Positions 35,028 through 55,913 are shown, counted from the first letter of the stretch. The stretch is DNA of 64,000 nt from Candidatus Saccharimonadales bacterium (GCA_035700225.1 DASSOT010000003.1:111-64110); one strand, 5' to 3'. Made by a program: numbers and translations. The notes: generated from the letters alone by a model not told the origin.

Positions 35028-35702
35028 TCACTCGGGCTGGGCAAAAACGGCGGCGTCGACGGTTTTAGCGCCTGCCGACTTGAGTACTTTTGCCGCTGAT
35101 TCGATGGTCGCCCCGGTAGTGGTTATATCATCGACCAACAATATATGCGCACCGACGGGAAAAACACGGGTACGTACTTTTAATGCTTTTTCAAGATGTT
35201 TGAACCGTTCTTCCCGGCTGGCTCCGACCTGCCTTGAGCTACCCCGGCGTATTAACAGCTTCCTGTGTTCCCAGCCTCTGGCTTTTGCCAGGTGTTCGGC
35301 AATTAGCCGGGCCTGGTCATAGCCTCTTTGCCTGACCCGACTGTCGGCTGTCGGTATGTGGCATATGATGATATCGTCCGGCAACTGAGGCAGTACGCTG
35401 TCGATAGCGCGCGCTACGACCTTTGAGGCGGCTTTAGCGCGGTGAAACTTATATCTGTAAATCAGTTCTTTCACGGTTCCGCCGTATTTGGTGGCAACCC
35501 ATACATGCGCTATCTTTGTGGTTGATTTACAACTTTTGCAAGTCGAGCTTTGTCTGCTCAAGCCGTGGCAACGGAAACAACGGCTCACTACTCCCAGTAA
35601 TGAAGAATTTTCGCAGGACTCGCAGAGAAGTTCTCCGTTTCGCCCGCACACGATACAGTGGTGGGGCGCGATTAACGCTATTGCTTGTTCTATAATATTC
35701 AT
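35028..35702 (-). CDS. comFC: ComF-family protein (ComFC; phosphoribosyltransferase domain with N-terminal Cys4 zinc finger)
   Basis: CxxC...CxxC N-terminus (HHCIVCG...CESCE) and PRTase motif ILLVDDITTTGATI. Confidence 0.75.
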   Translation of the reverse strand: MNIIEQAIALIAPHHCIVCGRNGELLCESCENSSLLGVVSRCFRCHGLSRQSSTCKSCKSTTKIAHVWVATKYGGTVKELIYRYKFHRAKAASKVVARAIDSVLPQLPDDIIICHIPTADSRVRQRGYDQARLIAEHLAKARGWEHRKLLIRRGSSRQVGASREERFKHLEKALKVRTRVFPVGAHILLVDDITTTGATIESAAKVLKSAGAKTVDAAVFAQPE

Positions 35703-36348: not shown

Positions 36349-36392
36349 TCTTAAAAAAAAATTAAACCTCCCGATTTATGCGGGAGGTTTTT
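36349..36392. terminator. bidirectional rho-independent terminator shared by hsp20 (+) and the pilin operon (-)
   Basis: CCTCCCG-ATTTATG-CGGGAGG hairpin flanked by an A9 run upstream and a T5 run downstream. Confidence 0.7.
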
Positions 36393-36416
36393 AGTTTCTT
36401 AGCGGTTACTAAAGTT

Positions 36417-36872
36417 TTAGCTTCCGGGGTTCACTTTGGACAGGACGAATTTGACTATAAGCTGGGCGAAGGCGACTATAACCAGGCCGATGATGGCATA
36501 AAGGATAGTGTTGCGGGCAGACTTGGTGTTTTCAGGGTTGCCGCCGGAAGTCACATAGCGGAAACCGGCATAGATAATCATGATTACCGCCAGTACTCCG
36601 ACTATTACCGAGAAGATATTGAGGGCATCCGCAAGCAACTTATCAATCCCTTTCTCCGGATCGGTGCTGTTGGTTTGATGGCCTTCGGCATCTTTATTAC
36701 AACCCTGGGCTTTGTCGTCAAAGGTGAGATTAGCCCCGCCGCAAATCTTGTGGATGGTGTCTTCCTGCGCCGAAACAGCGGGGGACAGCAAAAGAAAAAC
36801 TGCAAAAAGCGCTGACAATATAAGACCGAGTCTGGTGAGCGGGTTGAGGACTGGAGCTGATTGCATATTCAT
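36417..36872 (-). CDS. VirB2/TrbC-like T4SS pilin paralog 1
   Basis: Sec signal peptide, Cys-containing variable ectodomain, then conserved C-terminal double-TM anchor IFSVIVGVLAVIMIIYAGFRYVTSGGNPENTKSARNTILYAIIGLVIVAFAQLIVKFVL. Confidence 0.6.
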   Translation of the reverse strand: MNMQSAPVLNPLTRLGLILSALFAVFLLLSPAVSAQEDTIHKICGGANLTFDDKAQGCNKDAEGHQTNSTDPEKGIDKLLADALNIFSVIVGVLAVIMIIYAGFRYVTSGGNPENTKSARNTILYAIIGLVIVAFAQLIVKFVLSKVNPGS

Positions 36873-36880
36873 AATGTTAT

Positions 36881-37318
36881 CTAGGCTATCTTGCTTAATA
36901 CAAATTTTACTATCACCTGGGCAAAAGCGACTATTAACAAGCCGACCAGGGCATAAATAATGGCGTTCCTGGCGGCTTTCGTGTTCTCCGGGTTGCCGCC
37001 GGAGGTTACCATCCGGAAACCGCCGTAGATTATCATGATTACGGATATGATTCCTACGATTATCGAAATTATATCCACGACATTGTTTATCAATCTAGTT
37101 ATCTTGGACTCAGCCGCTACATTGACGGGGTTCCCGTGTTCGTCGGTTTCATGCACCTGGCACTGCCCGTCGGCTCCTGTGAACTGAAAATCTGCTCCGG
37201 TACAGAGCTGTCCTACGCCCGCGGCCGATGTTTTCGGCGCCATCATCAGGGCGAACGCCAACAATAGGCCGGATAACAGCAATGTAATCTTTTTGAGGCT
37301 GATAGTTTGTGTAAACAT
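36881..37318 (-). CDS. VirB2/TrbC-like T4SS pilin paralog 2
   Basis: Same architecture; C-terminus IISIIVGIISVIMIIYGGFRMVTSGGNPENTKAARNAIIYALVGLLIVAFAQVIVKFVLSKIA. Confidence 0.6.
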   Translation of the reverse strand: MFTQTISLKKITLLLSGLLLAFALMMAPKTSAAGVGQLCTGADFQFTGADGQCQVHETDEHGNPVNVAAESKITRLINNVVDIISIIVGIISVIMIIYGGFRMVTSGGNPENTKAARNAIIYALVGLLIVAFAQVIVKFVLSKIA

Positions 37319-37335
37319 ATTTTTATCTTATAGGT

Positions 37336-37764
37336 TTATGAGTTGCCCGTAGCTTTGGCCAGGACGAATTTGACGATGAATTGCGCTAATGCCACTATCA
37401 CCAGACCGATTATGGCGTATAGGATGGTGTTTTTCGCGGTAGATATATTGCCGGATTCGCCGCCGGAAGTCACATAACGGAAACCGCCGTAGATTATCAT
37501 AATCACACAGACTACACCGACGATTACGGAGAAGATATTGATGACTCTTGCGACAAGAGTGTTCGCATTATCACCGGCATCCGCCGTCGAGGTCTTACAT
37601 GTGTTTGAGCTTGCATCGTCGGCCAGGTTCAAATCCGCGCCCTGGCAAGTAGAGTCAGTAATCAGGGGCGTATCAGCCGCCATAGCTACGGCAGGGACTC
37701 CGCCGAGTATCAACAAAAGCCCGGCGCTGGTGACAGCTATCAATCTTTTTATTTTGTTTATCAT
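37336..37764 (-). CDS. VirB2/TrbC-like T4SS pilin paralog 3
   Basis: C-terminus IFSVIVGVVCVIMIIYGGFRYVTSGGESGNISTAKNTILYAIIGLVIVALAQFIVKFVLAK; N-terminal signal peptide. Confidence 0.6.
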   Translation of the reverse strand: MINKIKRLIAVTSAGLLLILGGVPAVAMAADTPLITDSTCQGADLNLADDASSNTCKTSTADAGDNANTLVARVINIFSVIVGVVCVIMIIYGGFRYVTSGGESGNISTAKNTILYAIIGLVIVALAQFIVKFVLAKATGNS

Positions 37765-37802
37765 TTCTTTTTTCCTTTCGCTAAACGCTTTATCTTTAGC
37801 CT

Positions 37803-38267
37803 TTACGATCCTGTGGCCTTGGACAGGACGAACTTAACGATGAATTGCGCTAATGCTACAATTACTAGTCCTACAATAGCATATAATATCGTATTTTTGG
37901 CAGAAGAAACATTACCGGAATCCCCGCCGGAAGTCACATAACGGAAACCGCCGACGATTATCATTATCACGGCGACTACGCCGACTACCACGGAGAATAA
38001 ATTCACTATCGTTGCTATCAAGTCATTAAGTTTGTTTTCCGGTTCGTTGCCGGTGAAAGCACAGGCATCAGGCGAAACCTGGCCGGTAGGGAATTTCAGC
38101 TCCGCGCCCTGGCAGGTTGAAGCTTGTATGTTGGGGGTTTCCTGCTGAGGATCAGCCTGCGGCTGTTGGGCCGCAACCAAGCCCCCTGCGCCGAAAAAAA
38201 CCGCGAACATAGCCAGGCTGGCGATGAGATATGTGCTTCTTTGTAATGTTCTTCTGATTATTTCCAT
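37803..38267 (-). CDS. VirB2/TrbC-like T4SS pilin paralog 4
   Basis: C-terminus LFSVVVGVVAVIMIIVGGFRYVTSGGDSGNVSSAKNTILYAIVGLVIVALAQFIVKFVLSK. Confidence 0.6.
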   Translation of the reverse strand: MEIIRRTLQRSTYLIASLAMFAVFFGAGGLVAAQQPQADPQQETPNIQASTCQGAELKFPTGQVSPDACAFTGNEPENKLNDLIATIVNLFSVVVGVVAVIMIIVGGFRYVTSGGDSGNVSSAKNTILYAIVGLVIVALAQFIVKFVLSKATGS

Positions 38268-38293
38268 GAATCGTCCTGATTTAACTATTTTCT

Positions 38294-38322
38294 ATCATAT
38301 AACGCGCACATTATTGTCACAA
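38294..38322 (-). promoter_or_regulatory. candidate internal promoter (TTGTGA-N17-TATGAT) between pilin paralogs 5 and 4
   Basis: Minus-strand read of the 65-bp spacer gives TTGTGA then a 17-nt spacer then TATGAT. It is the only sizeable gap inside the nine-gene array. Confidence 0.3.
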
Positions 38323-38332
38323 TGAATTTTCC

Positions 38333-38743
38333 CTAGGCTATCTTGGTTAACACAAGCTTGACTATTATCTGAGCGAAGCCGACGATAATCAAACCGACCA
38401 AGGCATAGATAAAGGTATTCCTAGCTGAGGTAATCTGGTTTGAGTCTCCTGCCGCTGTAACGAATCGGATGCCGCTGATAATAATCATGATTACACATAT
38501 CAGGCCGACGATTATCGTCAGCAGATTTATTACCTTGTCCACCGTACCGCCAAGCCCTTGACTGCTTGTCTTCAGCTTGTCCTGGTCACAATGGCCGCTT
38601 CCATCCCCTACGCCAACAGTGACGCAAGCTTCATCCTTAGCTCCGCTGTATAAGGCGTGCGCACTGCCGCCAAAAAAGGGAAGGGCCAAGCCCAAGGAGA
38701 GAACGGTTAGAAGCGCGATATTTTTTAATTTTTGAACAATCAT
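38333..38743 (-). CDS. VirB2/TrbC-like T4SS pilin paralog 5
   Basis: C-terminus LLTIIVGLICVIMIIISGIRFVTAAGDSNQITSARNTFIYALVGLIIVGFAQIIVKLVLTKIA. Confidence 0.55.
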   Translation of the reverse strand: MIVQKLKNIALLTVLSLGLALPFFGGSAHALYSGAKDEACVTVGVGDGSGHCDQDKLKTSSQGLGGTVDKVINLLTIIVGLICVIMIIISGIRFVTAAGDSNQITSARNTFIYALVGLIIVGFAQIIVKLVLTKIA

Positions 38744-38761
38744 ATGCGTTTTGAACTCATT

Positions 38762-39175
38762 TTACACCCCGATTTTGAATAAGACCAGTCTGACCAGAGC
38801 CTGCGCGATGGCGGCTAAAACAAGTCCGATTATGGCGTACTGGATATATTCGCGCGCTTTGCCGACATCCTCCGGATTATTTCCGGACGTGGCAAGCTTT
38901 ATACCGGCCCAGATTATACTGACTACCGCGGCAAGCCCCGTTATTAAGGTAATGAGATCTACCACCTTGTTGATAATACCGTTCGGCCCGTATATCGGGT
39001 TACCGCCTTCGCTACTGTCTTTGCATGGCGCCGAGTCAGCCGCAGGGCCTACGTTCGCCTGATTGCAAATATCATCGTAAAGCTTTACGCCCGGGCCTGC
39101 CGCATAAGAAGTATACGCCGGCAGTAGGAGCGCGCTTAAAACCAATATGCCTGCAAAAAATTTTTTATACATCAC
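38762..39175 (-). CDS. VirB2/TrbC-like T4SS pilin paralog 6
   Basis: C-terminus LITLITGLAAVVSIIWAGIKLATSGNNPEDVGKAREYIQYAIIGLVLAAIAQALVRLVLFKIGV. Confidence 0.55.
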   Translation of the reverse strand: MMYKKFFAGILVLSALLLPAYTSYAAGPGVKLYDDICNQANVGPAADSAPCKDSSEGGNPIYGPNGIINKVVDLITLITGLAAVVSIIWAGIKLATSGNNPEDVGKAREYIQYAIIGLVLAAIAQALVRLVLFKIGV

Positions 39176-39591
39176 AACCTGCCTATGACCGTTATTATTA
39201 TGGCTTCCGCGCTAAGCGCTATGACCAGACCCAGGAGAGAAAAAACTATGGCTTGTTTGGAGCGGGAAATCTTTTCCGTATCAGTAGACGCAGTGGTATA
39301 GTTGAACGCCGCTATCGCAAGAGAGATGAGCGCCACGCCGGCCGCTACGCCGAACACTATCCTCATGCCGTTTTGAAGCTGATCGTTGTCTCCGCTGACC
39401 TTTGGCAGGGCGGTCAGACAATTTTGGTTGGGATTGAATGCGTTCGAATCATTGGTAGAGCAGTTGGTTACATCTATACGATCCGCCGCGGCATGTACGT
39501 TTTGCGACGCAGTAAAAATTGAAATAAATGCTACGGCAATCAAGCATATGAGTAGCATAACCAGCTTGCGCGAAGATAACTTGGCAATCAT
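39172..39591 (-). CDS. VirB2/TrbC-like T4SS pilin paralog 7 (divergent)
   Basis: Signal peptide, Cys pair, and a divergent but recognizable double-TM C-terminus (VFGVAAGVALISLAIAAFNYTTASTDTEKISRSKQAIVFSLLGLVIALSAEAIIITVI). Its start overlaps the stop of the neighbouring paralog (ATGA). Confidence 0.5.
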   Translation of the reverse strand: MIAKLSSRKLVMLLICLIAVAFISIFTASQNVHAAADRIDVTNCSTNDSNAFNPNQNCLTALPKVSGDNDQLQNGMRIVFGVAAGVALISLAIAAFNYTTASTDTEKISRSKQAIVFSLLGLVIALSAEAIIITVIGRL

Positions 39592-39971
39592 TGCGTGAAC
39601 CTCCCGGCAAAGAAACTTACGGCAGACGTCGCTACCAAGGCTATTATAAGACCGGTCAATGCATCTATGAGAGTACTCTTGGCCTTTGTGACCTTGTCGC
39701 TGTTACCGCGCGATTCGCTGTATTTGATACCGGCGAATATTACGTAGCCTAAGGCTACCAGCACGGCGATGCGGGTAAGTATTTCTATGACGGCCAAGCC
39801 TATCAGCCACAGGTCATTTATGCCGTTAAGCCTGGGCGTACAGCTGTTGACAGGATCGCTTGGCAAGTATTTGACGTCCAGATATTCGAACCAGGGCGGT
39901 ATGCCCAGGAAGCTTCTGATGCATTCTTTGTCGGCTACCGCGAAAGTGCTTATCCAGGATATAAGGTTCAT
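39588..39971 (-). CDS. VirB2/TrbC-like T4SS pilin paralog 8 (divergent)
   Basis: C-terminus IAVLVALGYVIFAGIKYSESRGNSDKVTKAKSTLIDALTGLIIALVATSAVSFFAG. Short N-terminal hydrophobic leader; 4-nt start/stop overlaps on both sides. Confidence 0.45.
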   Translation of the reverse strand: MNLISWISTFAVADKECIRSFLGIPPWFEYLDVKYLPSDPVNSCTPRLNGINDLWLIGLAVIEILTRIAVLVALGYVIFAGIKYSESRGNSDKVTKAKSTLIDALTGLIIALVATSAVSFFAGRFTQ

Positions 39972-40546
39972 GTCTTAAACAAGCCTCCCGGTATCAGATA
40001 TTGCAATATGGAAAATGCGAAGATGTAGATAGCCAGGCCGATGACCGCATACTGGGCCCGCTGTTTGGCGCTTTGGCTGTTTTCGGGGTTGCCTTCAGCC
40101 ATACTGTATTGCAGGCCGGCGAGTATCAGCGAAACCGTTATGACAATACCGATTCCAACCGAAGCGAACCGGATAAGTGCAAACACCAGGTCTTGGATTG
40201 GCCCGAGGTTCGCCGGACCGTTTTTGCCCAGACAGCCGAAATTAAATTTGGTCTTGACGTTTCTGGACTGGTCGTCGAGATTGCCGCACTGGTAATTGCC
40301 TTTCTGGCCAGCGCCCTCTATGGTGAATTTGTTTATCACATCGGCTTTACAGCCACCGGGGTCATCGCTGTCGGCACAATTATCGAATGCTTTCTTGCAT
40401 TTGTCGGCATCATAAATAAAGTCGCCATTACAGTCCGACCTTCTGGCGGCGGCGTCCGTCTTAGCAGACAAGAACAATACTGGCGCAACAAACACCATTA
40501 GAAAGAAACTTGTCAGGACTATTTTCTTTACGGCTAAGGTTTGCAT
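39968..40546 (-). CDS. VirB2/TrbC-like T4SS pilin paralog 9 (largest, Cys-rich ectodomain); first gene of the pilin operon
   Basis: 192 aa; signal peptide, 8 cysteines in the ectodomain, C-terminus VGIGIVITVSLILAGLQYSMAEGNPENSQSAKQRAQYAVIGLAIYIFAFSILQYLIP. Confidence 0.5.
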   Translation of the reverse strand: MQTLAVKKIVLTSFFLMVFVAPVLFLSAKTDAAARRSDCNGDFIYDADKCKKAFDNCADSDDPGGCKADVINKFTIEGAGQKGNYQCGNLDDQSRNVKTKFNFGCLGKNGPANLGPIQDLVFALIRFASVGIGIVITVSLILAGLQYSMAEGNPENSQSAKQRAQYAVIGLAIYIFAFSILQYLIPGGLFKT

Positions 40547-40684
40547 GGTTTATTTGTTTTTAGTGGTCGTTACAGCTTAATTATGACCTTTATGTTTATG
40601 TTTAGCAAGCTGGCACGGGTATTTATTTAGGTATCGACTTTTTAGCTTAAGTGTTTTATGCTCATTAAAGAAGAGTAGTCTTCC

Positions 40685-42019
40685 TTGATTATTCATCGTC
40701 AAAAACATAAAAAGAACATGAACAAAAAAATAACAAAAAGTCTGTTTGGCCGAGCTTCTGTCATGTTGCTCGCTTTTGTTTTTTTTGGTTCTATTCTTAC
40801 TTCGCTGTTTTTCTTCTCCCCCCCTGTAGCCGCCGACAATAGCGGTACAGGTACGTTTGAGTACAAAGACATACACAATGAAACCATAATAGAGGTCAGG
40901 GGCGGTGATACGCAGGAATATCATAAAAGCACCGGCGGCAATGGCGTATACAACGGCGGGGGTGCTGAAGGTTTTGACGGGTGTACGGCCTGGATTCAGA
41001 CCAACAGCCATAAATACGACGGTGATACGCATGCCAAATGGTGGGCCGGGTGTCTAGGCGGGCCCGACAAAACTCCTACCGAGCCGGGTAAAAAATCCAT
41101 CACCATAAAGGCGGCACACAACTATACCGGGGACTGGATAGACCATAGCCACATAAAAGTCGGCGGCACCATTTATTACGACAACCACATAGACGACACG
41201 CTCGATTTCAAAGCTACAAACCAGAATAATGGTTGTGATACGAACGTCATTAACGGCTTTCCTGAGTCCGACGGGGGTGACATAACCAACGCCCCGGCCG
41301 CCGAGATAACCATTAACAAGCCTGTCAGCGCAACCAACAATAACTGCGTTCAGACTAAGCACCCCGTATATTTCAATAACACACAAAATTTTGCAATCTA
41401 TTTCATGTGGGTGGACGCAGGAACCATACAGACCTCCGATAGGACAGCCATGGTTTACGTGCAGAACGGCGGGGGCGGGCCTTATCTGGATAACGGTAGC
41501 GGGCGCAGTAGTGATTCCAGTTGTCTATCCCAGATAGTACCGGATAGCGTCGGCTCAAGACATGGAACCTTAATCCTGCGCAATAGCGACGGTAATCCTT
41601 TTTCAAGCGGATTCAGCCCGCAGATATCCGGCGTTGATTTTCATGATCACGGAGGGTGCAAAGTAAGTGACCCTTTGCGCGTGAACATAGGCGGTAATGT
41701 GAACGCATCGAAGCCGCCCGGTAGTGGAGATGCCGGCGGAGCCGATGCCGGAGATGCCGGCGGAAACATAACCGACTGCGATACCGAGCTCACCTCGCCA
41801 TTAAGCTGGATATTATGCCCGCTGATAGACATAGGCTCCAATGTTTCTGATTTTGTCTTCAACGACCTGGCCAAACCGTTGCTTAGCGACATACCTATAA
41901 GCACCAAGCGGGACAACGGCACCTACAGAGCCTGGCAAGGCTTCAGGTTTTTAGCTAACATCATGCTTATCGGGTCCATGCTGGCGATAGTTTACGCCCA
42001 AGCGAGGGGGGAGAAGTAA
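40685..42019 (+). CDS. secreted Gly/Asn-rich beta-type surface protein with C-terminal membrane anchor (possible pilus-associated protein or adhesin)
   Basis: Probable start MNKKITKSLFGRASVMLLAFVFF about 40718 (signal peptide). Low-complexity GGxG runs (GSGDAGGADAGDAGGN). C-terminal TM LANIMLIGSMLAIVYAQ. First gene of the plus-strand T4SS-like operon. Confidence 0.4.
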   Translation: MIIHRQKHKKNMNKKITKSLFGRASVMLLAFVFFGSILTSLFFFSPPVAADNSGTGTFEYKDIHNETIIEVRGGDTQEYHKSTGGNGVYNGGGAEGFDGCTAWIQTNSHKYDGDTHAKWWAGCLGGPDKTPTEPGKKSITIKAAHNYTGDWIDHSHIKVGGTIYYDNHIDDTLDFKATNQNNGCDTNVINGFPESDGGDITNAPAAEITINKPVSATNNNCVQTKHPVYFNNTQNFAIYFMWVDAGTIQTSDRTAMVYVQNGGGGPYLDNGSGRSSDSSCLSQIVPDSVGSRHGTLILRNSDGNPFSSGFSPQISGVDFHDHGGCKVSDPLRVNIGGNVNASKPPGSGDAGGADAGDAGGNITDCDTELTSPLSWILCPLIDIGSNVSDFVFNDLAKPLLSDIPISTKRDNGTYRAWQGFRFLANIMLIGSMLAIVYAQARGEK

Positions 42020-43947
42020 TGTTAGACTCCTATACAATTAGAAAAATAGTCCCGCGCCTGGCCCTGGCCGTAATCGGTGTGAACCTGTCCATATATCTCT
42101 GCCTGGCGGCGGTTGACGTCACAAATATCATCGGAGGCGGTTTGGGCGACCTTATACGCACGCCCTTCGTGGACAGCGGCAGTTTCGGCAGTATCGGTAT
42201 AGAGAAAAACGCGCTCAATGGCATCGTCGGTGCCGTCGGGGCCGGGTTGATGGCGGCCATAGTTACTGCCGTCGTAGCGCTGGGGTTGACAGCTTCATTC
42301 ATAATAGTCGGCCTCGGTATGTTGCTTTTGGCCAGTGCTGTCGTCGTACTTGTCGCGATAGCTGTTCTGGCCACGCTCGTACTCAGATACGGTGCGATAA
42401 TCTTCCTAAGCATAGTTTCACCGATAGCCATCGCTTGCCTGGTCCTGCCGGGAACAGAAAAATACTTTAAGACCTGGTGGGATTTTTACCTTAAAACGCT
42501 GATTGTCTATCCTATCATCGCGGCTATATTCGCCATCTCCGATGTCTTGGGGGCAATATTCTTAAGCACCCAGGCCTCCGTAAATAACCTGAGCAGTCTG
42601 GTTTCCATATTCGTCGTGCTGGCGGCCATGTACGCGCCTCTTTTCATGATTCCGTTTTCATTCAAGATGGCCGGCGGGTTCCTGGGCAACTTCTACGACT
42701 TCCTTAACACACAAGGGGTCAACCGGGTGCGCGAAAAGCTCAACAAATGGAAAGAAGACCCGGAAAGCTGGTACGCCCAGAACAAGCAACGCCTGCATGA
42801 CCAAAAATATGAAAAAGGTTTCACGGCCAAGCAGATAGCCAGCGGTACGATAGCCGGTGGAAGAAGCTTCATGAGAGGCCAGGGGTTTAGAGCCGCTTAC
42901 GGCGGTAAGTCCAGGGCACTCGGCGCGCAGAAGATACTCGCCGCCGCTAAACAGGCTCAGGAGCGCGAAATCATGGCAACAATCCAGGGCGATGACGATA
43001 TCGGTGAAGCCCTTTATGCAGGTGGTAGCCGGCAGGAAATAGCCAATGCTTTAATGAAGGCGAACTCAACCCGCTTCGGCGACATAAATGACCCTTCCAA
43101 GCATACTGCCGAGCAGTTGAGAGAGCGCGAGGAAGCCATAGCGCTGGTGCAAAGCGCTCAGGGCATGATGGGCAACAGCGTACGAAAGTTTGTTGCCGGA
43201 CACGAAATAGCAAGCTCTACCACCGGCTTCAACAAGGCCGGCGGCGTAGAGCTATTCCAAAAAGCCCAAGGCGTGGGCGATTCCGAAATGCTCAGGATGC
43301 GCTCGATGATAGACATGAAAGGCGAGCAGAAGAAGTTAAACCGTCTGGATTCCGGCGGGTACAGTACATCCAAGGCTCTTAACCTGAGGAAAGAATACGC
43401 CGCCGGTACCGGCGACTTTGCCGGTCTTAACCAGGCGCAAAGGGACACTTTACTGGAAGAGAAACTGCTTGATTCCGCTATCGAAAAGAACAGCCCGTCG
43501 GCGCTGGCCACCATGGACCACAATGGTATGAAGCGCGTGTCCCAGCGTATAGGCCATAGGCTTAACCAAGCCCGCATGATCGAGGATCCTGAAGAGCGCG
43601 CCAAAGCAATCGAGCTGGAAACTGCCCATTTAGCCGCCTTGCGCGATGCACTTAACTACGCCTCCAACGAAAACCGCACTGACTTGGTAGACGATGTTTA
43701 CTCCACTTCTGTCGAAGGAATGTCTATACAAGTCAAGAAAAGGGACGAGCTTGGTAATGTCATGAAGGATGCAGAGGGCAATGAAATTATGGAAACCAGA
43801 GCGCCGAACGTAAGAGAGCTTGTACAGTTAATGGATTCTGGCAAAGGTCTATTTAGCACCTATGATGACGCCCACAGGGGCTATGGTTCTAGTGAATTGG
43901 ATGAGCGGCACAGGATGGACGATATTATGCGACCTCCGGGTGGATAA
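42019..43947 (+). CDS. VirB6/TrbL-like polytopic T4SS channel protein with long C-terminal soluble extension
   Basis: About 6 TM helices in the first 230 aa, then a 400-aa hydrophilic domain. Start ATG overlaps the upstream stop (TAATG). Topology and position match VirB6-like proteins of Gram-positive T4SS. Confidence 0.5.
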   Translation: MLDSYTIRKIVPRLALAVIGVNLSIYLCLAAVDVTNIIGGGLGDLIRTPFVDSGSFGSIGIEKNALNGIVGAVGAGLMAAIVTAVVALGLTASFIIVGLGMLLLASAVVVLVAIAVLATLVLRYGAIIFLSIVSPIAIACLVLPGTEKYFKTWWDFYLKTLIVYPIIAAIFAISDVLGAIFLSTQASVNNLSSLVSIFVVLAAMYAPLFMIPFSFKMAGGFLGNFYDFLNTQGVNRVREKLNKWKEDPESWYAQNKQRLHDQKYEKGFTAKQIASGTIAGGRSFMRGQGFRAAYGGKSRALGAQKILAAAKQAQEREIMATIQGDDDIGEALYAGGSRQEIANALMKANSTRFGDINDPSKHTAEQLREREEAIALVQSAQGMMGNSVRKFVAGHEIASSTTGFNKAGGVELFQKAQGVGDSEMLRMRSMIDMKGEQKKLNRLDSGGYSTSKALNLRKEYAAGTGDFAGLNQAQRDTLLEEKLLDSAIEKNSPSALATMDHNGMKRVSQRIGHRLNQARMIEDPEERAKAIELETAHLAALRDALNYASNENRTDLVDDVYSTSVEGMSIQVKKRDELGNVMKDAEGNEIMETRAPNVRELVQLMDSGKGLFSTYDDAHRGYGSSELDERHRMDDIMRPPGG

Positions 43948-46521: not shown

Positions 46522-47526
46522 ATGGCAACATACAAAGTAATCCAGGACATAGAGGCCGAAGATAAGTTCGTAGGCCCGCTGACGCTGAAACAATTCGTTT
46601 TTGCTATGTTCGGCGCGCTTTTTGCATATCTGTCGTTCTTCGTACTTACCAAAGGCCTGGCATGGGGTCTAATAGCCACTATGCCGCCTTCTCTTTTCGG
46701 ATTTTTCATGGCCGTGCCGTGGAGTAGTGAACAACCTACGGATATATGGGTGCTGGCAAAGATACGTTTCAGACTGAAACCAAAAAAACGCATCTGGGAC
46801 CAAAGCGGCATGCAGGAGCTTGTGACCATAACCGCCCCCAAGAAGGAAGAAAAGCCCCTGACCAAAAATATGTCGCAGGCCGAAGTAAAAAGCCGGCTGA
46901 AGGCACTGGCCGAAACGATTGACAGTCGAGGCTGGATTATCAAGGATTCCCCGGATAGTTTCGTGGCCGAAGAAGCTAGCGACCGCTTGATAGACCCGGG
47001 CATAATGCCGAGGCAGGTGCCTGACGTTGATATGGCCGCCATACCGGATATGCTTGAGGAAGAGCACGGTCTGGACAGCATGATTCAGCAGAGCGATGAG
47101 GCCAGAAAAGCCCAACTTATGGAAAAGATGAACCGTATCAGGCAGGGCGAGTCCGTAATTGCCACCGAGGAGCCGGAGCCCGTCGTTTCCCCGCCTGACG
47201 AAAACACTGAAAACGCGCTTGATGAAGCGGTTTTGAGCGCCAGCCTGAGAGCAAAGAAGCAGGCCGGAGATATATCAAGAGGCAACATGCATGCCATACC
47301 GGCCAGCCAGCCAGTAGCGCAGACAAGCCAGCCTGCGGGACAGGATGAAGGTGCAGAGGAAGCGGAGCAAACAGAGGTAGAAAAAGCACAAGCGTCTGTG
47401 ACAGAACAGAGAAGGCCTGATATACTGGACTTAGCCCGGAACAACGATCTGAACGTATCAACTATTGCGAGGCAAGCCAGCAATAAAGACAAAGGTCCGG
47501 ATGAAGTCGTTATTGCCCTTCACTAG
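46522..47526 (+). CDS. PrgI/VirB3-like two-TM T4SS protein with acidic C-terminal extension
   Basis: N-terminus IQDIEAEDKFVGPLTLKQFVFAMFGALFAYLSFFVL...GLIATMPPSLFGFFMAV gives two TM helices. Position is immediately upstream of VirB4, as in Gram-positive conjugation systems (PrgI, ConD). Confidence 0.5.
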   Translation: MATYKVIQDIEAEDKFVGPLTLKQFVFAMFGALFAYLSFFVLTKGLAWGLIATMPPSLFGFFMAVPWSSEQPTDIWVLAKIRFRLKPKKRIWDQSGMQELVTITAPKKEEKPLTKNMSQAEVKSRLKALAETIDSRGWIIKDSPDSFVAEEASDRLIDPGIMPRQVPDVDMAAIPDMLEEEHGLDSMIQQSDEARKAQLMEKMNRIRQGESVIATEEPEPVVSPPDENTENALDEAVLSASLRAKKQAGDISRGNMHAIPASQPVAQTSQPAGQDEGAEEAEQTEVEKAQASVTEQRRPDILDLARNNDLNVSTIARQASNKDKGPDEVVIALH

Positions 47527-47571: not shown

Positions 47572-48444
47572 ATGAATCCTTCCCAGCAAAATGCTAACGC
47601 TCAACCGAATATAAATTTACAGACACCCCAGCATTCAGGCGCTGAGGTTGTGCAGAATGCCCAGCCCGCGAACCCCGCCCAGCCCGCAGGACAGATTCCG
47701 GCAAAACCGGCAGTAAATACCAACAGCACCCAGAACAACCTTCAGATAGCCGAGATACGCGACGGTATAGTTATCATGAACGACGGTTCTTTCCGTTCCG
47801 TGGTCATGTTCAAGTCCATCAACTTTGATCTTATGAGCCCCGACGAGCGCGAAGGGGTCGAATATGCATACCAAAGCTTCTTGAACTCGCTTTATTTTCC
47901 TATACAGATATTCGTCCGTTCCGAAAAAGTCGACATGAGGCCGTACATGGAAAGATTACAGAAGATTCAGAACGAACATGACAACATGCTCCTGGCTATC
48001 CTGATGGACGATTACCTCGGTTATATAGAACAATTGTCGGCTCAGACCAACATAATGGACAAGCATTTCTATGTCGTCATACCCTTTTTGCCCAGCGAAT
48101 CCAAGGAACATACGCTTACATCCAGCAAAAATATATTGGATGGAGTGATAGGGCTTTTCAGCAAATCTCCGACACATGTGGTCATCAACGAAGCCAAGCT
48201 GGAAGAAGCCAAGACTGAACTGCGCAACCGAGTCCAGGCTGTGTTGAGCGGTCTGCTTGACTGCGGAGTTCAGGGCTTGCCGCTGGACACGGAAGAGCTT
48301 ATCGAGCTTTATTACGACACCTATAACCCCGACACGGCCACCAGACAACATCTGCAAAGGTTCAAGGATCTTTCTGCGCCGGTAGTAACCAAGGGCGAAG
48401 GGCAGGCGCCACAGCCCGACCTGGATAAGGAGCTCGAAACGTAG
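47572..48444 (+). CDS. VirB4 N-terminal domain encoded as a separate ORF
   Basis: IRDGIVIMNDGSFRSVVMFKSINFDLMSPDEREGVEYAYQSFLNSLYFPIQIFVRSEKVD matches the conserved N-terminal domain pattern of VirB4/TrbE/ConE. Its stop overlaps the next ORF start (TAGTG). Confidence 0.6.
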   Translation: MNPSQQNANAQPNINLQTPQHSGAEVVQNAQPANPAQPAGQIPAKPAVNTNSTQNNLQIAEIRDGIVIMNDGSFRSVVMFKSINFDLMSPDEREGVEYAYQSFLNSLYFPIQIFVRSEKVDMRPYMERLQKIQNEHDNMLLAILMDDYLGYIEQLSAQTNIMDKHFYVVIPFLPSESKEHTLTSSKNILDGVIGLFSKSPTHVVINEAKLEEAKTELRNRVQAVLSGLLDCGVQGLPLDTEELIELYYDTYNPDTATRQHLQRFKDLSAPVVTKGEGQAPQPDLDKELET

Positions 48445-50357
48445 TGGGTATTTTTAAGAAAAAACAGACCGTCCCCTTGGATCCTGCCACAGCGGCGCAG
48501 GCGCAGAAAATGCGCGAAGAACAAGAGGTAGCCGCCGCCTTTCAAAAGGGCATAACGGCACTGCGCGATTTTATTGCTCCCAGCTCCATAGAGTACAGCG
48601 CTACGAGCTTTACCCTAGGCACCCGCTACGCCAGGAACTACTACGTATACGGTTACCCCCGACAGCTCTCGACCGGCTGGCTCAGCAGTATGGTAAATCT
48701 GGACGAGGTAATCGACCTTTCTTTGTACATTTATCCCGTGGAAAGCCAGGTAGTTCTGGAAAACCTGCGCAAAAAAGTGGCCCAGCTGGAAGCAGGCATA
48801 CAGATAGATATGGAAAAGGGCCGCGTGCGCGACCCGGGCAAGCAGAACGCCATCATGGATGCCGAAGAAATGCGCGACAAACTGCAGGTGGGCGAGGAGC
48901 GCTTTTTCCGCTTTGGGCTGTACTTTACCGTATACGGCTCGTCCATGGACGAGTTGGAATTTATATCACATAAGATTGAGTCCATTTTGGGGCAACAACT
49001 GGTCTATTCCAAACCCGCAAGCTCACAGCAGGAACAAGGCTTCAACAGCACAATCCCGCAATTTTTCGACCAGCTACAGATACGCAGGAACATGAACACC
49101 GGCGCAATAAGCACCAGCTTTCCGTTCACCAGTGCCGACTTAAGCCAGGAAGACGGAATCCTATACGGCATCAATATGCACAATTCCGGCCTGGTCATAT
49201 TTGACAGATTTACCCTGGAAAACGGCAATGCGGTAGTCTTTGCAAAGTCAGGCGCCGGCAAAAGCTTCGCCGTAAAGCTCGAGGCACTGCGTAGCTTGAT
49301 GCTCGGCACGGAAGTGTTCATAGTCGACCCGGAAAACGAATACCAGAGGATGTGCGAGGCTGTCGGCGGAGCTTATGTACGGCTCAGCCTGAACTCGGCT
49401 ACCCGCATAAATCCTTTTGATTTGCCGAAAGTGGTGGACTCCGATGAAGCCGACAGCGCACTTAGAAGCAATCTTATAACCCTTCACGGCCTGCTCAGGC
49501 TTATGATGGGCGGAGCGGCCTCTCAGGCCAGCGGCGGCGCCGTCGACGCGGTCCTGAACGCTTCGGAAGAAGCCGACCTGGATGCGGCACTGATAGAAAC
49601 CTACGCCAAAGCCGGTATCACCAACGACCCTCTCACGCACAACTCCGCTCCTCCTACCATTACAGATCTTTATGACACCTTGCTCCATATGGGCGGGAGC
49701 GGCCCTGAGCTGGCGCAAAGACTGCGTAAATACACATCGGGTACTTTTGCCGGCATATTCTCCCAACAGAGCAACATAAACATCGACAACCCGATGGTCG
49801 TATTCAATATCCGCGACCTGGAAGACGAACTGCGCCCGGTAGCCATGTACATAGTGCTTAATTACATCTGGAACAAGACCAAGAGTGACCAGAAACGTCG
49901 CCTGCTGGTGATAGACGAAGCATGGCAATTGATGAAATACGAGGACAGCGCCAGCTTTATGTTCTCTCTGGCTAAAAGAGCTCGAAAATACAATCTCGGT
50001 ATATCGACCATATCCCAGGACGTTGAAGATTTCATGGGTTCCCGCCTGGGGCGCGCCATAGTCGCCAACTCCTCTATGCAATTATTGCTCAAACAGTCGC
50101 CTTCGGCGGTTGACGTACTGGCAGATGTCTTCAAGCTCACCAGCGAAGAAAGAAAACGCCTGAGCGGCTTTCCGGTCGGCCAGGGCCTGTTTTTCGCCGG
50201 GCAGAACCATGTGCACATAAATATCCTGGCCAGTCCGACGGAACAGGGGCTTATCACTACCAATCCGGATGAGATTAAGCAGTTGGAACAGGCAGGCGAA
50301 CTGGCCGACGCGCAGGGAACCATTGATCTGGAGAACCGCTTGAGCCCGGGAATGTGA
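48444..50357 (+). CDS. VirB4-family T4SS ATPase (C-terminal NTPase module)
   Basis: Walker A VVFAKSGAGKSFAV; Walker B RRLLVIDEAWQLM; AAA-like and VirB4-CagE motifs (GISTISQDVEDF). GTG start at 48444. Confidence 0.8.
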   Translation: MGIFKKKQTVPLDPATAAQAQKMREEQEVAAAFQKGITALRDFIAPSSIEYSATSFTLGTRYARNYYVYGYPRQLSTGWLSSMVNLDEVIDLSLYIYPVESQVVLENLRKKVAQLEAGIQIDMEKGRVRDPGKQNAIMDAEEMRDKLQVGEERFFRFGLYFTVYGSSMDELEFISHKIESILGQQLVYSKPASSQQEQGFNSTIPQFFDQLQIRRNMNTGAISTSFPFTSADLSQEDGILYGINMHNSGLVIFDRFTLENGNAVVFAKSGAGKSFAVKLEALRSLMLGTEVFIVDPENEYQRMCEAVGGAYVRLSLNSATRINPFDLPKVVDSDEADSALRSNLITLHGLLRLMMGGAASQASGGAVDAVLNASEEADLDAALIETYAKAGITNDPLTHNSAPPTITDLYDTLLHMGGSGPELAQRLRKYTSGTFAGIFSQQSNINIDNPMVVFNIRDLEDELRPVAMYIVLNYIWNKTKSDQKRRLLVIDEAWQLMKYEDSASFMFSLAKRARKYNLGISTISQDVEDFMGSRLGRAIVANSSMQLLLKQSPSAVDVLADVFKLTSEERKRLSGFPVGQGLFFAGQNHVHINILASPTEQGLITTNPDEIKQLEQAGELADAQGTIDLENRLSPGM

Positions 50358-50385: not shown

Positions 50386-53300
50386 ATGGCAGATGACCCC
50401 GCCGAAAAACCAGATGGAGTATACGACGAGCCCGGCGCGTCAGACCTGCAGGTACCTAGTGGGAGCGGCTATATGCCAAGGGGAGAAAAGCCGCGGCGCA
50501 CACCGCACGAACCGGTTTATGAAGATGATTCCGATGGCCAGGTAGCCCAAGCCGGTATGGGCCCTCCAGGGCAGGGCGGGGATGAACACGGCGGGCGCAG
50601 AAGACTGGGCTCCCCCAGCTGGGCCGACCGTATGCGCCAGCGCAGAAGCATGGCCAACCGGCGGCAAGGCCGGGGGCACGGTAGGAGCCGCGGCGACATC
50701 AACAACTCGGAAGAAAACGCCGAGGAACCGGCTCCAACCAGGGCTGACGACAAAGAAAGGTCGCAGGTCGGCGATGGTGGCGGCGAAGAAGACAAAGGCT
50801 CAAGCCTTTACAACCCTACAGATGCCGCTCTTCCGGCAAATGTCAGGATAGCCAAACAGCTGGCCAAGGCTTTCATGAGCAAAAAGGGCAGGAGAGGCAT
50901 GACCGCAGGCGGAGTCGTCGGGCTGGTATTCTTCCTTTTCAGCCTGGCGCACGGCCCGCTGGAAATAATCCACATAGGGATGCTGTTGCAAAAAGCCCAT
51001 TTCAGCAACCAGGAAGGCGTCGGCGACCTGACTATGAGCAGGCTTTACCGCTTCATCAGAAGTGGCGGCGATGTGGGCGAAACCCGCATAGGCTGGTACG
51101 AAAGCCGGGTGAAGAACAAAATGCTGGCAGATTTGAAGAAAATCGGCCTGGAGCCTGAATTCACAAGCGCCAGCAGTATTTATGAATCATTCAAGGTAGA
51201 CACTACCGACAGCAAAAGCCCTTATTACAACATGACTGAGGACGAACTAAGAACAGAGCTATCCAAAAAAGGCTACGATTTCGACGGTACGAGCGAAGTA
51301 TCCAAAGGAAAATACAGCGTAAAGCTGGGCAATGATTTTACAAGGAGAAAATCTCTCACGCTACTGGTCAAGGAAACCGGCAGGAAGGGCTTGTTCGCCT
51401 CTTTGAAGGCCCGTCCGTTAAAGAAATACGGCTGGGTGGATTGGCACCCTATACATCCTTTGGACCGCAAGGTCAACGACTCTATAGATAAGCTTTACAA
51501 GAATTGGAAGCAAAAGAGGGCTGAAAAAAGAGCCGGGCGGGGTAAGCCCGCGACCATCGACAGCACCAATGCCAAAGAACAGACGGTAGACGCCGACGGA
51601 AACACCGTAGATAATCCTATAGCCGATGGTAGCGTACAAACCGTGGACGACACGAGCAAAAGCGCCCAATTGATACAGGATCTGAAAACCAGTAGCGGGC
51701 TTAAGATTACCGGAGGCGTTGCCGCCGCGGCGGGTGTTGCCTGCGCGGTAAAGGAAATAAATGATAATTACAGCCTCATACAATACCTGGACTTCATCAA
51801 ACCCGTCATACAGATAGGTATGGACGCCGTTACCATCGCAAACCAGGCTATGAGCGGAGTGGGCGGTATAGACCTGTTGCAAGCTGGTTTTGTTGCACGC
51901 GATTTTCTGCAAAAAGACAAGGACACAGGCAAGGTCGTGTCCTCTTGGGATGAGGCAAAGACATTCCGTGCGGGAGAGGGCAAAAAAGGCGGTAAGGACC
52001 TGGACAAACGCACCAAGGAAGAGTTTTCAAAAGGGGCGCCCTGGTGGATAAACTGGACAGGCAAAGACCCGGCAAAAGGTGTGCTCAAGCCTTTGTGCTC
52101 AACAGCCGGAACAATTGCTACCGGCGCCATCAGCGTCGGGATTGATGTAATCACCGGCCACAGCGTTTCTACGCTCGCTAACCTTGTAGGGAGCTATTTT
52201 GCCGGACCGGTAATAATAGACAAGATTAGCCATCTCCTGGTCGGGGATGCGCTTGATTTGGACAATGTAGCCGGTGCAACATGGGGCAATCTGGCCAATT
52301 ACGGGACGCGTTTTGCGGCCAACGGCATGGCTCTTTTGGACGGCGGGGTGAAATTGACGCATTTGGATGAGATTGCCCTGAACAACGAACGCTTGCAGGA
52401 TGAACAGCAGGAATTCAACAACCGTAGTTTCGCATATAGAATGTTTAACCCCTACGACACTCGCTCTCTGGCATCCGCCGTCATAGACGATACGCCGGCC
52501 CTGTCGATGAACAACCTTTCCAGCGTATTCCAAAGCTTCCCGAGCCTGTTTTCGTCCGCCTTCAAGTTCCCCTCCGGCTTGTTATCCGGTACTGTTTCGG
52601 CACAACGCTTTACTGCCCCGCCCTATGACTATCCCTTTCCCTCCATAGGCTTCAGCATAGAAGATCGCGACAACAGCAAAGTGATAGACCCGATAGAAAA
52701 TGACCATAAGGTCGCCAAGATACTTGATAACAACGGAGAAGGCGGCAATCCGGACTACATAGAGCGCGCAAAGGAATGCTTCAACGTCGATATAAAGAAG
52801 GAAAGCGCTGGCGGATGGAACGCAACTCCCGGGGAGAATGACGACGAGTTCTTCAGCAAACTCTATACGGATGAATACCCCGACGGCTGTACTGACAAAA
52901 GCCTCGAGTGGATACGGGTAAGGAGTTTCATTCTGCAGGTACAGACCATGAAGGCCTACGCCTGTTGGGCGGATGACGAAGAAGCTTGTGCCGAGCTTGG
53001 CTACAACGATAGCTCTGTAACTGGCGGCGGCTCTCCGGGCGTTTTACCGAGCGGCTCCGCGCAGGCATTAGCTGGCCAGCTAATCGGTTTCATAAACAGC
53101 GGCAAGATTTCCTGCAACGGCCAGGCTAGCGACTGTCCTGATATCAAAAATACAGCCAACGGCACCAGCATAAAAGGCGGGGCCTGTAACGTCGATGCGC
53201 TGGACGCAAAGCTTTTGGGGATGATGCTGGAGCTCGCCCAGATGGGACATACGTTCGTGTTCTCGGCTCTTTGTACTGATCATCCCAGCAATCCGGCCAG

Positions 53301-53552: not shown

Positions 53553-55913
53553 ATGTTAAATAGAATTCTTCTCGCAATAGCCGCACTCTTCCTTACATCT
53601 TATACGATTATTGTCCCCCAGGTAGCAAGAGCTCTTCCGGCCGCACAGAAACAACTTTTTGGCAAAAACATAAGGTATTTTGATCTTGGGTGCGATACCA
53701 CGGGCACAACTCCAGCCACTGGGGGCGCCACTGACCTAGACGGTAAAAAAGTGTACATGGTGGGAGATTCTATAACCGAAATAACGACGCCTCAATTGGA
53801 ACAAGCATTCAAAGACGCAGGTGCTAACCCAACGGTGGACGGTGTGGGTGGTGCCGCAATAGTACCCGAGAATACGCCCGACACTATTTTGAGCGGAGTG
53901 GAAATAGTAGAGAAGGATAAGGCAACCATCAGAGATGCGGGAGTCATTGTCGTAGCTCTGGGCACCAACGAATATCCGGACGTCTTTGAAGAACACTTAA
54001 AAGAACTATTCAACAAGATCAGGAATATTAACGAGTCATCACCTATATATTGGGTTAATACCTTTACTTCGGATGACGGTGGCGGCAACCCGGCCTATAC
54101 CACGGCTGGGGCCGAAAAGAAAAACAAGATAATAGACAAGCAGTCTACCAGACTGGGCTTTAACGTAGTAGATGTAAAATCGGCCAATATTAAAACCACT
54201 GACGGTATCCACCCGTTTAACGATAAAGAAAAATATGCCAAGACTGTGGTTGACGGTGTTTCTGGTGGTGCACCATCAGGAGGGGGTGGTGGGGGGGGCG
54301 GTTCAGGGCCTTCTTCGGTAACGGCCGGAAACATACCTGCGGAAGGAAAAGATGTGGGTGCTACTGAGTATACCGGAAGTACCGGATACAGAGGAGATGA
54401 CCTGACCACTACTTATGCTTATGCTGAGTTGGTGCCCGGAGGTCACGGTACAGCAACCGAAGATACTGCTAAAGCTATGGGCGGGCTAAAATATAAGCAA
54501 AAACTTGCCATAACTCTTAATGGCAAAACTGTAGTTGCGCAAAAACTTGATATTGGCCTTGGCGGGGGACCGATAAACGGCCACGACAGGGCAATAGATC
54601 TGCACTTTGACAAGACCGCGTCTTCACTTGGGATTTCCAGCCCTGCAAGCTGGGCCGGTGTTGTCCATGTCCAGGCTGTTTCGGACAGCACCCCTCTTGG
54701 ACCCACAGACACAATACCTACCGCCGAACCGCCTGCCGCAGGCGCCGGCGGTTCTTGCTCCTGCCCGGCCGGTGGCGAGGGGTTAGACACTACGCTTACC
54801 GGTAGCGACCATGTTGAACAAGCATACAATTTCTTTGTCGGCAAGGGGCTTACCCCTTTGCAGTCGTCGATAATAGTCGGTGTAATAATGGAAGAGTCCG
54901 GTCACGAGCTTGATACCACCGCAACAAACCCTTCTACCGGGGCTTACGGTATTGCCCAGTGGACAAACCCTCCCTACAGCAACAGATTGCCAGAACTAAA
55001 AGATTTTGCGCGCTCCCAAGGAAAGCCTGCCAGCGATTTTGCCACACAGCTTAATTTTATGTGGAAAGAGCTTACGGGGGGCTATACAAGTACTTTGAAT
55101 AAGTTAAAGAGCGTGAGTTCGCCAAGCGAATTGGATCAGGCGGTTTATGATTTTGAGGCTACTTATGAAGTTTCTGGCCATCAGCTTATACCCGAAAGAC
55201 AAGATAATGCTCGGTTCGTGTTCAGCCACTATGGCGGCGGGGTGGCGGGACCTGGCGGGGGAAGCGTGACCATAGACGGCGGGGGAAGCTGTAGCGAGCC
55301 TTCGGTTGAGGATGCTAACCTGAGCAAAACCATCACAGTGAGCACTAAGGGTAAATTTATCACGTTGCCAAGTAAATATTCGTGCCCCGGTCGTACAACT
55401 GTAATAGATTCGCGCGTGGCTCCAGGTCTTGCATATTTATTAACCAAATATGATATGTGTGCCGCTGATGGATTAGCGGACGGACATAAAAGCCATGGAG
55501 CCGGGATTTCCGTTGACCTTGCACCAAAAAGTGGAAATTCCAAAGAGGTATGGAAAAATTCAACAGAGGCCGCGGCACGAGCTATCGGCTGGTTTGGCGA
55601 CGGTGCTACAGATCCTATAGGGTCACAACACGGCTGTGCTTTCTACGACGGGGGTTATGGCCAGTGTATGCACATAATACATCCGGATAAAATTCCTAAG
55701 TGGGTGCGCTGGATCGGCTATAACGGAGATATCGACCATGGCGACCCCTGGCATTGCCAAAGTAACGGCGGGTCTTGTTATCCGCACTTGCACATCAGCT
55801 GGGACTCACCTAATGGGGATGCGACCTCGGCAACGTCAATACCGGAGCCAATACCTGAAGTTTATACATTTCCTGCCCCTGTTCCTGATGATTTGAGGGG
55901 GTTGTTGGAGTGA
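53553..55913 (+). CDS. 786-aa secreted multi-domain cell-wall hydrolase: SGNH/GDSL esterase, RlpA/3D-like barrel, SLT-like lytic transglycosylase and C-terminal LAS-like metallopeptidase motifs
   Basis: Signal peptide. KVYMVGDSITE (SGNH block I). Poly-Gly linker GGGGGGGGSG. IVGVIMEESGHE...GAYGIAQWT (SLT catalytic Glu plus GxxQ). HKSHGAGISVDL...HLHISW (HxxGxSxD...HxH). Confidence 0.6.
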   Translation: MLNRILLAIAALFLTSYTIIVPQVARALPAAQKQLFGKNIRYFDLGCDTTGTTPATGGATDLDGKKVYMVGDSITEITTPQLEQAFKDAGANPTVDGVGGAAIVPENTPDTILSGVEIVEKDKATIRDAGVIVVALGTNEYPDVFEEHLKELFNKIRNINESSPIYWVNTFTSDDGGGNPAYTTAGAEKKNKIIDKQSTRLGFNVVDVKSANIKTTDGIHPFNDKEKYAKTVVDGVSGGAPSGGGGGGGGSGPSSVTAGNIPAEGKDVGATEYTGSTGYRGDDLTTTYAYAELVPGGHGTATEDTAKAMGGLKYKQKLAITLNGKTVVAQKLDIGLGGGPINGHDRAIDLHFDKTASSLGISSPASWAGVVHVQAVSDSTPLGPTDTIPTAEPPAAGAGGSCSCPAGGEGLDTTLTGSDHVEQAYNFFVGKGLTPLQSSIIVGVIMEESGHELDTTATNPSTGAYGIAQWTNPPYSNRLPELKDFARSQGKPASDFATQLNFMWKELTGGYTSTLNKLKSVSSPSELDQAVYDFEATYEVSGHQLIPERQDNARFVFSHYGGGVAGPGGGSVTIDGGGSCSEPSVEDANLSKTITVSTKGKFITLPSKYSCPGRTTVIDSRVAPGLAYLLTKYDMCAADGLADGHKSHGAGISVDLAPKSGNSKEVWKNSTEAAARAIGWFGDGATDPIGSQHGCAFYDGGYGQCMHIIHPDKIPKWVRWIGYNGDIDHGDPWHCQSNGGSCYPHLHISWDSPNGDATSATSIPEPIPEVYTFPAPVPDDLRGLLE

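Follow-up and report, generated by a model that had tools for sequence, protein, structure and literature searches.

Arrays of tandem genes for pilins of type IV secretion systems (T4SS) have already been described in Patescibacteria. Quinonero-Coronel et al. (2025, PMC12102498) screened 3,035 genomes of Patescibacteria with the Pfam families PF18895 and PF04956. Across 383 assemblies they report 441 arrays, each of 2-11 pilin genes, with a within-array identity of 25% on average and 54% at most, and they compare them with Bartonella and Anaplasma. In Southlakia epibionticum ML1, a series of six pilin genes was called essential, and SEML1_0016-0019 are each listed as essential in the transposon-sequencing (Tn-seq) table (Wang et al., 2023, PMC10633639). 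A 2025 review counts the arrays as a remarkable feature and the Patescibacterial pilus as still hypothetical. The questions touched are whether the monoderm, host-dependent Patescibacteria make a pilus with their T4SS, and whether this pilus is the conduit through which they exploit their hosts. Here, we describe an array of this kind in a 64,000-nucleotide stretch of DNA, hereafter the window, from a Candidatus Saccharimonadales bacterium (GCA_035700225.1 DASSOT010000003.1:111-64110). The window holds a large array of nine genes and no new kind of system. Its genes do not behave like a pool of variants; they make up a fixed set of distinct parts, to which an expandable bulk subunit is added.

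An earlier note, made from the sequence alone, had placed nine tandem pilin-like genes on the minus strand at 36417-40546, and nine consecutive minus-strand open reading frames (ORFs) are found head to tail at exactly these coordinates. In the order of transcription, positions 1 (39968-40546, 192 aa), 2 (39588-39971, 127 aa), 3 (39172-39591, 139 aa), 4 (38762-39175, 137 aa) and 5 (38333-38743, 136 aa) make up a tightly coupled 5' block, which position 5 closes. The array is then split by an intergenic gap of 65 nt (38268..38332), and four canonical pilins follow: position 6 (37803-38267, 154 aa), position 7 (37336-37764, 142 aa), position 8 (36881-37318, 145 aa) and position 9 (36417-36872, 151 aa), the last two being extra copies confined to close relatives. 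The successive junctions are three overlaps of 4 nt, then gaps of 18, 65, 38, 17 and 8 nt. The "several" ATGA start/stop overlaps of the earlier note are real as 4-nt overlaps but number only three, of which two are ATGA; the third, between positions 3 and 4, is GTGA (read ttGTGATGtat), or TGATG if 38762-39175 starts at its second codon. A hidden Markov model (HMM) built from the pilin family found no further copy among the window ORFs of at least 70 aa.

PF18895 (T4SS_pilin) matches all nine proteins, with E-values from 1.5e-16 to 1.7e-4. Its gathering threshold of 26.6 bits is passed by eight genes with 28.8-60.6 bits (position 1, 28.8; position 2, 30.0; position 4, 54.5; position 5, 49.6; position 6, 59.7; position 7, 54.8; position 8, 60.6; position 9, 58.3), and position 3 stays under it (22.0 bits, E 1.7e-4). 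The gathering threshold of PF04956 (TrbC/VirB2), 27.9 bits, is passed by three genes, 36417-36872 (28.0 bits), 37803-38267 (31.9 bits) and 38762-39175 (29.1 bits); the other matching copies score 13.9-25.6 bits, and 39968-40546 and 39172-39591 give no match to this family. The name "pilin" is already given by NCBI to position 9 (HET7672943.1) and to position 6. Hydropathy shows the two C-terminal hydrophobic helices of the proposed membrane anchor in every protein. The Sec signal peptide that had been attributed to every paralog holds for eight of them, as an N-terminal hydrophobic signal-like segment, and is missing in 39588-39971 (position 2). These eight N-termini end in A-x-A-type cleavage sites, which were read by eye from the sequences and are not predictions. 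Ahead of the hairpin, the N-terminal extension measures roughly 40-110 aa and carries a Cys pair, C-x11-17-C, in seven of the nine genes (positions 3-9). The type IV prepilin motif (class III leader, G|F/M-x-x-x-E) is absent from all nine proteins and the Pfam matches are to T4SS pilin families, in agreement with the statement that these are not type IV pilus pilins.

AlphaFold2 models of positions 6 and 1, which are single-chain predictions, give long helical hairpins with a helix pLDDT of about 85-91. The two properties on which the earlier note had staked its identification, HMM similarity and a two-helix hairpin, are therefore both present, and with the VirB4-, PrgI- and VirB6-like neighbours described below the assignment to VirB2/TrbC-type T4SS pilins survives. 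It is right but not new, since PMC12102498 already presents arrays of 2-11 such pilins; for the same reason, the remark that the array exceeds those of Rickettsiales adds nothing. Within the window array, identity between paralogs averages 29%, with a maximum of 50%. The anchors of the four 3' genes, numbered 1-4 in the earlier note and described there as near-identical, are conserved only, at 58-80% pairwise identity.

The arrangement of the genes across species was followed with a genome scan, in which the pilin alignment was compared with one genome per species. This confirmed 585 loci, and the best 80 of the 585 were analysed. Each of them has a single array, whose size ranges over 2-9 pilin genes, with six as the mode among complete arrays and nine as the upper limit. 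In reciprocal-best-hit comparisons with these 80 loci, position 1 is matched in 60, by the first gene every time, and position 2 in 72, by the second gene in 62. Position 3 is matched in 24 loci (third gene in 20), position 4 in 16 (fourth gene in 15) and position 5 in 10 (fifth gene in 10/10). For positions 6 and 7, the hits, in 32 and 55 loci, are mostly the final gene or genes, and positions 8 and 9 have hits in 1 and 0 loci. The position 2 class is present in exactly one copy in 52 out of 52 complete arrays. Compared with the closest relatives, L081 and L001, the identity matrix is diagonal at positions 1-7, and L081 also has nine pilin genes, fully syntenic with those of the window. By these comparisons, the paralogs are old, with fixed positions. 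Typical Saccharimonadales-type arrays were also met on contigs labelled Candidatus Babeliales (L014, DATIIZ010000036.1) and Candidatus Dormiibacterota (L064, DATLRC010000009.1), labels that probably reflect binning contamination or mislabelling.

The spacing of the genes is conserved as well. A survey of 78 related arrays, all of four genes or more, gave a median of 76 nt for the largest intergenic gap and of 2 nt for the other gaps. Every gene after the gap outscores every gene before it against the family HMM in 76 of these arrays (means of 149 vs. 83 bits). The genes ahead of the gap are five in 49 arrays, and those behind it are one in 46 arrays and up to five elsewhere, four in the window. 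An extended -10 motif, TGnTATAA, lies inside the gap in 48 of the 78 arrays, as compared with 1.1% of background 80-nt windows, and ends at a median of 34 nt ahead of the start codon of the first canonical pilin; a Shine-Dalgarno-like AAGGA after it is counted in 62/78 arrays. Upstream of the first array gene, the motif is found in only 4 of 76 arrays. The window has a promoter-like site, TTGTGA-17-TATGAT (38322..38294, minus strand), at the place equivalent to the TGnTATAA of related arrays, and the last, canonical pilin gene of S. epibionticum is again preceded by the largest of the listed gaps (83 nt; PMC10633639). This two-block layout suggests minor (5') plus major (3') subunits. The ordered 5+N arrangement with its conserved internal promoter motif is a modest addition, not found in the papers on these arrays that were consulted; the part of PMC12102498 considered here describes variability, and fixed order, two-block layout and internal promoter motif do not figure in it.

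Positions 1 and 2, which open the array, are subfamilies of their own. Position 1 combines a signal-like N-terminus, a folded ectodomain with six Cys and the C-terminal hairpin. Its AlphaFold2 model (pLDDT 82.9) places the two helices at 116-149 and 154-184, and the region before the hairpin forms a small, confident domain of helices and short strands. The subfamily shares the motif QCGNL..NVKTKFNFGCLG..GPIQDL before the first helix, in which C87 and C105 are invariant, and a conserved QFLIPGG at the C-terminus. In matched related arrays, a member of this subfamily is always the first gene. The N-terminal part differs in length: the counterparts in L081 (7147-8181) and L001 (7228-8253) are 341-344 aa long vs. 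192 aa in the window, the extra length including Gly-rich repeats (GGQGGTGGQGG...) and additional Cys pairs.

Position 2 has no hydrophobic window within its first 50 residues and carries the motif C..FLGIPPWFEYL..C before the hairpin. In its class, the motif reads C..F(L/F)G(I/F/L)P(P/T)W(F/Y)(E/K)YL..C and a long hydrophobic N-terminus is mostly absent. Many counterparts (e.g., L004, L007, L011, L066) have a short N-terminus ending in FAA(A/S)C, which is lipobox-like and not preceded by a basic n-region. A lipoprotein assignment for position 2 was considered and not adopted, the window copy reading FAVADKEC vs. FAA(A/S)C in some counterparts, which makes lipidation doubtful. Position 3 is divergent, with a two-helix anchor by hydropathy, and is 53-55% identical to its counterparts in L081 and L001.

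Among the canonical pilins, position 6 has 4899 homologues at E<=1e-3. Its AlphaFold2 hairpin spans 76-112 and 117-152 with a pLDDT of about 90, and the stretch between the signal peptide and the hairpin is poorly predicted. Position 6 homologues share an ectodomain core, I-Q-x3-C-x-G-A-x-L-x-F...C, in which C52 and G54 are conserved at 100% and C69 at 97%. With this conserved Cys-loop core, and with a Cys pair that recurs in seven of the nine genes, the description of the ectodomains as essentially unrelated does not hold.

Variation between strains was read from six metagenome contigs, a small sample, whose identity across the array is 99.2-99.4%. Each of them keeps the nine genes intact and in unchanged order. 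Substitutions are 9 synonymous vs. 1 non-synonymous in the ectodomains and 18 synonymous vs. 1 non-synonymous in the anchors. Variable sites are no more frequent in ectodomains (9.7 per kb) than in anchors (8.8 per kb), and they are somewhat denser in the array as a whole (about 9 per kb) than in flanking housekeeping genes (3.5 per kb). Within the limits of this small sample, the figures point to purifying selection on the array within the population. Strain hypervariability or cassette exchange in the exposed region, of the type of Neisseria pilE/pilS or Anaplasma, was not found in the six contigs, and neither silent cassettes nor repeats that would suit recombination were seen.

These data bear directly on the proposal of the earlier note that the genes diversify rapidly, for antigenic variation or recognition of a host surface. 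Such interchangeable surface variants have been proposed for the virB2 genes of Anaplasma and Bartonella, and the same idea is raised by Quinonero-Coronel et al. (PMC12102498). The ectodomain does diverge faster than the anchor over long times: the ectodomain of position 6 has a median identity of 35% to those of its database homologues, and the anchor one of 76%, and positions 6 and 7 of the array are 80% identical in the anchor and 27% in the N-terminal region. It also fits this proposal that species differ in how many 3' canonical copies they have, from 1 to 5, and that positions 8 and 9 are without clear counterparts beyond close relatives. However, positions 1-5 are single-copy with an order fixed across species, positions 1-7 have one-to-one counterparts, in the same order, in related species, and the six strain contigs keep nine genes in order with ectodomain changes that are almost only synonymous. 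Positions 6 and 7 share the sole internal DNA similarity of the array, a stretch of 219 nt at about 78%, and the pilin genes of S. epibionticum were scored essential, not redundant. Thus, the faster evolution of the ectodomain stands, whereas rapid diversification and antigenic variation are not borne out, and we regard a pool of exchangeable variants as unlikely.

We consider it quite probable that the array is the pilin-subunit operon of a chromosomal, origin-proximal, Gram-positive-type (MPF-FATA-like) T4SS, with minor 5' and bulk 3' subunits. Its counterpart is the essential pilin array of S. epibionticum. In such an operon, each pilin would be inserted in the membrane by Sec and its signal peptide cleaved, leaving both ends of the hairpin outside the cell and the net-basic conserved loop (GFRYVTSGG..N...AKN) in the cytoplasm. 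The VirB4/VirB6-like platform would pull out the subunits and polymerise them into a VirB2-type tube. By analogy with the F and T pili whose structures are solved, the lumen would be lined by the loop, and the outer surface facing the host would display the N-terminal disulfide-loop extension. The five coupled 5' genes would provide low-abundance specialised subunits for initiation, tip or base, and the four 3' canonical copies, behind the internal promoter-like gap, would provide the bulk subunits from a second promoter; the canonical copy number, 1-5 depending on the species, may tune the pilus surface. A more specific version, to which we give somewhat less than an even chance, is a heteropolymeric filament made of five single-copy, position-fixed minor VirB2-like subunits and 1-5 majors expressed from their own extended -10 promoter. 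In this filament, the first subunit would be a Cys-rich, folded, tip- or adhesin-like protein and the second a subunit devoid of signal peptide. If true, this would give the T4SS an equivalent of the priming complexes that minor pilins form in type IV pili and type II secretion systems.

Several points weigh against the pilin-operon interpretation. A pilus has not been seen in any Patescibacterium, and polymerisation is deduced from family membership alone. The essentiality of the upstream pilin genes in Tn-seq could reflect a polar effect. Comparison of PDB sequences with the pilin family profile gave chance-level matches only (E 0.12), with no solved pilin matched, and a fold search was uninformative because the hairpin fold is so simple and generic. 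Finally, the basis of the major/minor split is gene order, spacing and HMM score, the site in the window gap is devoid of the TGn extension, and the promoter scan is not enriched over shuffles (10 sites vs. 7.1 expected). With no filament observed and a generic fold, the proteins might not be pilus subunits at all but small bitopic membrane proteins of a channel or of the envelope, or Sec-exported factors. VirB2 homologues also serve in channels independently of a pilus. The TM7x literature labels these proteins "Sec secreted array" and "putative effectors", and VirB2 is described as required for substrate transfer in the 2025 review mentioned above. On the other side, the family match is specific to PF18895 and PF04956, with E-values down to 1e-16, and, with two membrane helices at the C-terminus, free secretion as an effector is unlikely. 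Moreover, PrgF, the VirB2-like protein of a related Gram-positive T4SS, is reported to be essential for conjugation and was modelled as a pilus-like assembly (bioRxiv 10.64898/2025.12.18.695078). A role outside a pilus is, in our judgement, unlikely.

The T4SS core genes are on the opposite (plus) strand and begin 139 nt from the array. They encode, in order, a 444-aa exported protein, a 642-aa membrane protein, an 822-aa protein, PrgI, a TrsD-like protein, VirB4, a 1054-aa protein and a protein with a lysozyme domain, after which come recF, dnaN and dnaA. The 642-aa polytopic membrane protein (42019..43947) is the likely VirB6/TrbL-like platform. It has no Pfam match itself; its syntenic counterparts in L082 and L081 carry PF19590 (TrbL_3), and its S. 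epibionticum counterpart, SEML1_0013, structurally resembles TrbL/VirB6. The PrgI-family (VirB3-like) protein is encoded at 46522..47526 (PF12666, 45.6 bits). The TrsD-like protein (47572..48444) matches NF041427 (TrsD) below the cut-off (E 1.8e-7) and has matches to the N-terminal regions of VirB4 families. It is followed by a VirB4-like ATPase of the CD1110 family (48444..50357; NF045971, 352 bits for a cut-off of 325; TraG P-loop domain, 93.6 bits), and the two genes share a stop/start overlap, the first ending where the second begins. VirB4 appears to be split, the TrsD-like protein being a putative separate equivalent of the VirB4 N-terminal domain. A cell-wall hydrolase (VirB1/PrgK-like) with a phage-tail-lysozyme domain (PF18013, 82.8 bits) is encoded at 53553..55913. 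Neither the 822-aa protein (43996-46464) nor the 1054-aa protein (50386-53550) has a match in Pfam, NCBIfam or PDB sequences. The T4SS locus showed no recognisable coupling protein or relaxase, and no cyclase or other pilin maturation gene was identified. A tblastn search with the canonical pilin gave zero matches in 72,556 plasmids; hence, there is no close plasmid-borne relative. Used as an anchor for the genome scan, the VirB6-like protein gave 145 pattern matches, of which 0 were confirmed.

On its other side, the array is flanked by hsp20 and a ComF-like gene. A bidirectional, terminator-like hairpin (36364..36390, both strands; ten-pair stem with 6 G-C, T-runs on both strands) closes the operon, between the array end and the convergent hsp20. 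Upstream of the first array gene, the minus strand has a promoter-like site, TTGCTA-17-CATAAT (40580..40608). This is a consensus match only and is weak alone, given the yield of the promoter scan of the region. The pilin genes and the upstream region are overlapped by long ORFs or have such ORFs antisense to them (36378-36815, 39025-39522 and 40001-40501 on the plus strand; 40577-41032 on the minus strand). In three strain contigs (L085-L087), the gene caller took an antisense ORF in place of the intact ninth pilin gene, so that automated annotation can under-count the array. The ComF-like gene (35028-35702) is called with 224 aa in the window and two contigs and with 148 aa in these three, which may be a start-site or frameshift difference.

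The closest described locus is that of S. epibionticum ML1, the sole species in which the array was tested, and found essential. From SEML1_0006 to 0021, it shares with the window the order recF, lysozyme, VirB4, PrgI, VirB6-like protein, pilins, Hsp20 and ComFC/ComF-like protein, a correspondence that rests on synteny and the published domain table, not on sequence alignment. Its six PF18895 genes, SEML1_0014-0019, are arranged as 5+1, vs. nine as 5+4 in the window. For experiments on such arrays, the fixed-parts view can point to the genes worth deleting non-polarly or tagging, and to the place where a second promoter may sit. The arrays of PMC12102498 are likewise tandem pilins near virB4, often near dnaA.

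Beyond Patescibacteria, Gram-negative VirB2/TrbC pilins (Agrobacterium VirB2, RP4 TrbC, F TraA) also have a signal peptide, a two-helix hairpin and a short basic loop. The window pilins differ from them by an N-terminal extension with a disulfide-type Cys pair, by their many paralogs and by the monoderm organism in which they occur. In the same T4SS class as the window, with a CD1110-type VirB4, PrgI and lysozyme, pCF10 PrgF and Mbov_0395 of the Mycoplasma integrative and conjugative element (ICE) are small two-helix proteins. PrgF is a single gene of 75 aa without ectodomain; profile comparison with it gave a probability of 17.5% over 33 columns, and PrgF has no PF18895 match. Homology of the window pilins to Gram-positive VirB2-like proteins is thus unproven. 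Position 6 matches NCBIfam NF045849 (Mycoplasma ICE "Mbov_0395 pilin-like conjugal transfer protein") with E 1.5e-8 and 34.2 bits, the cut-off being 40, which hints that the ancestor of Patescibacterial pilins may have been a VirB2-like protein from MPF-FATA systems of monoderms and that they would not have been borrowed from diderms. Finally, the virB2 genes of Anaplasma and Bartonella, as cited in PMC12102498, are likewise several tandem divergent genes in one T4SS. However, whereas these are discussed as immune-evasion variants of animal pathogens, the window array shows conserved order and purifying selection.

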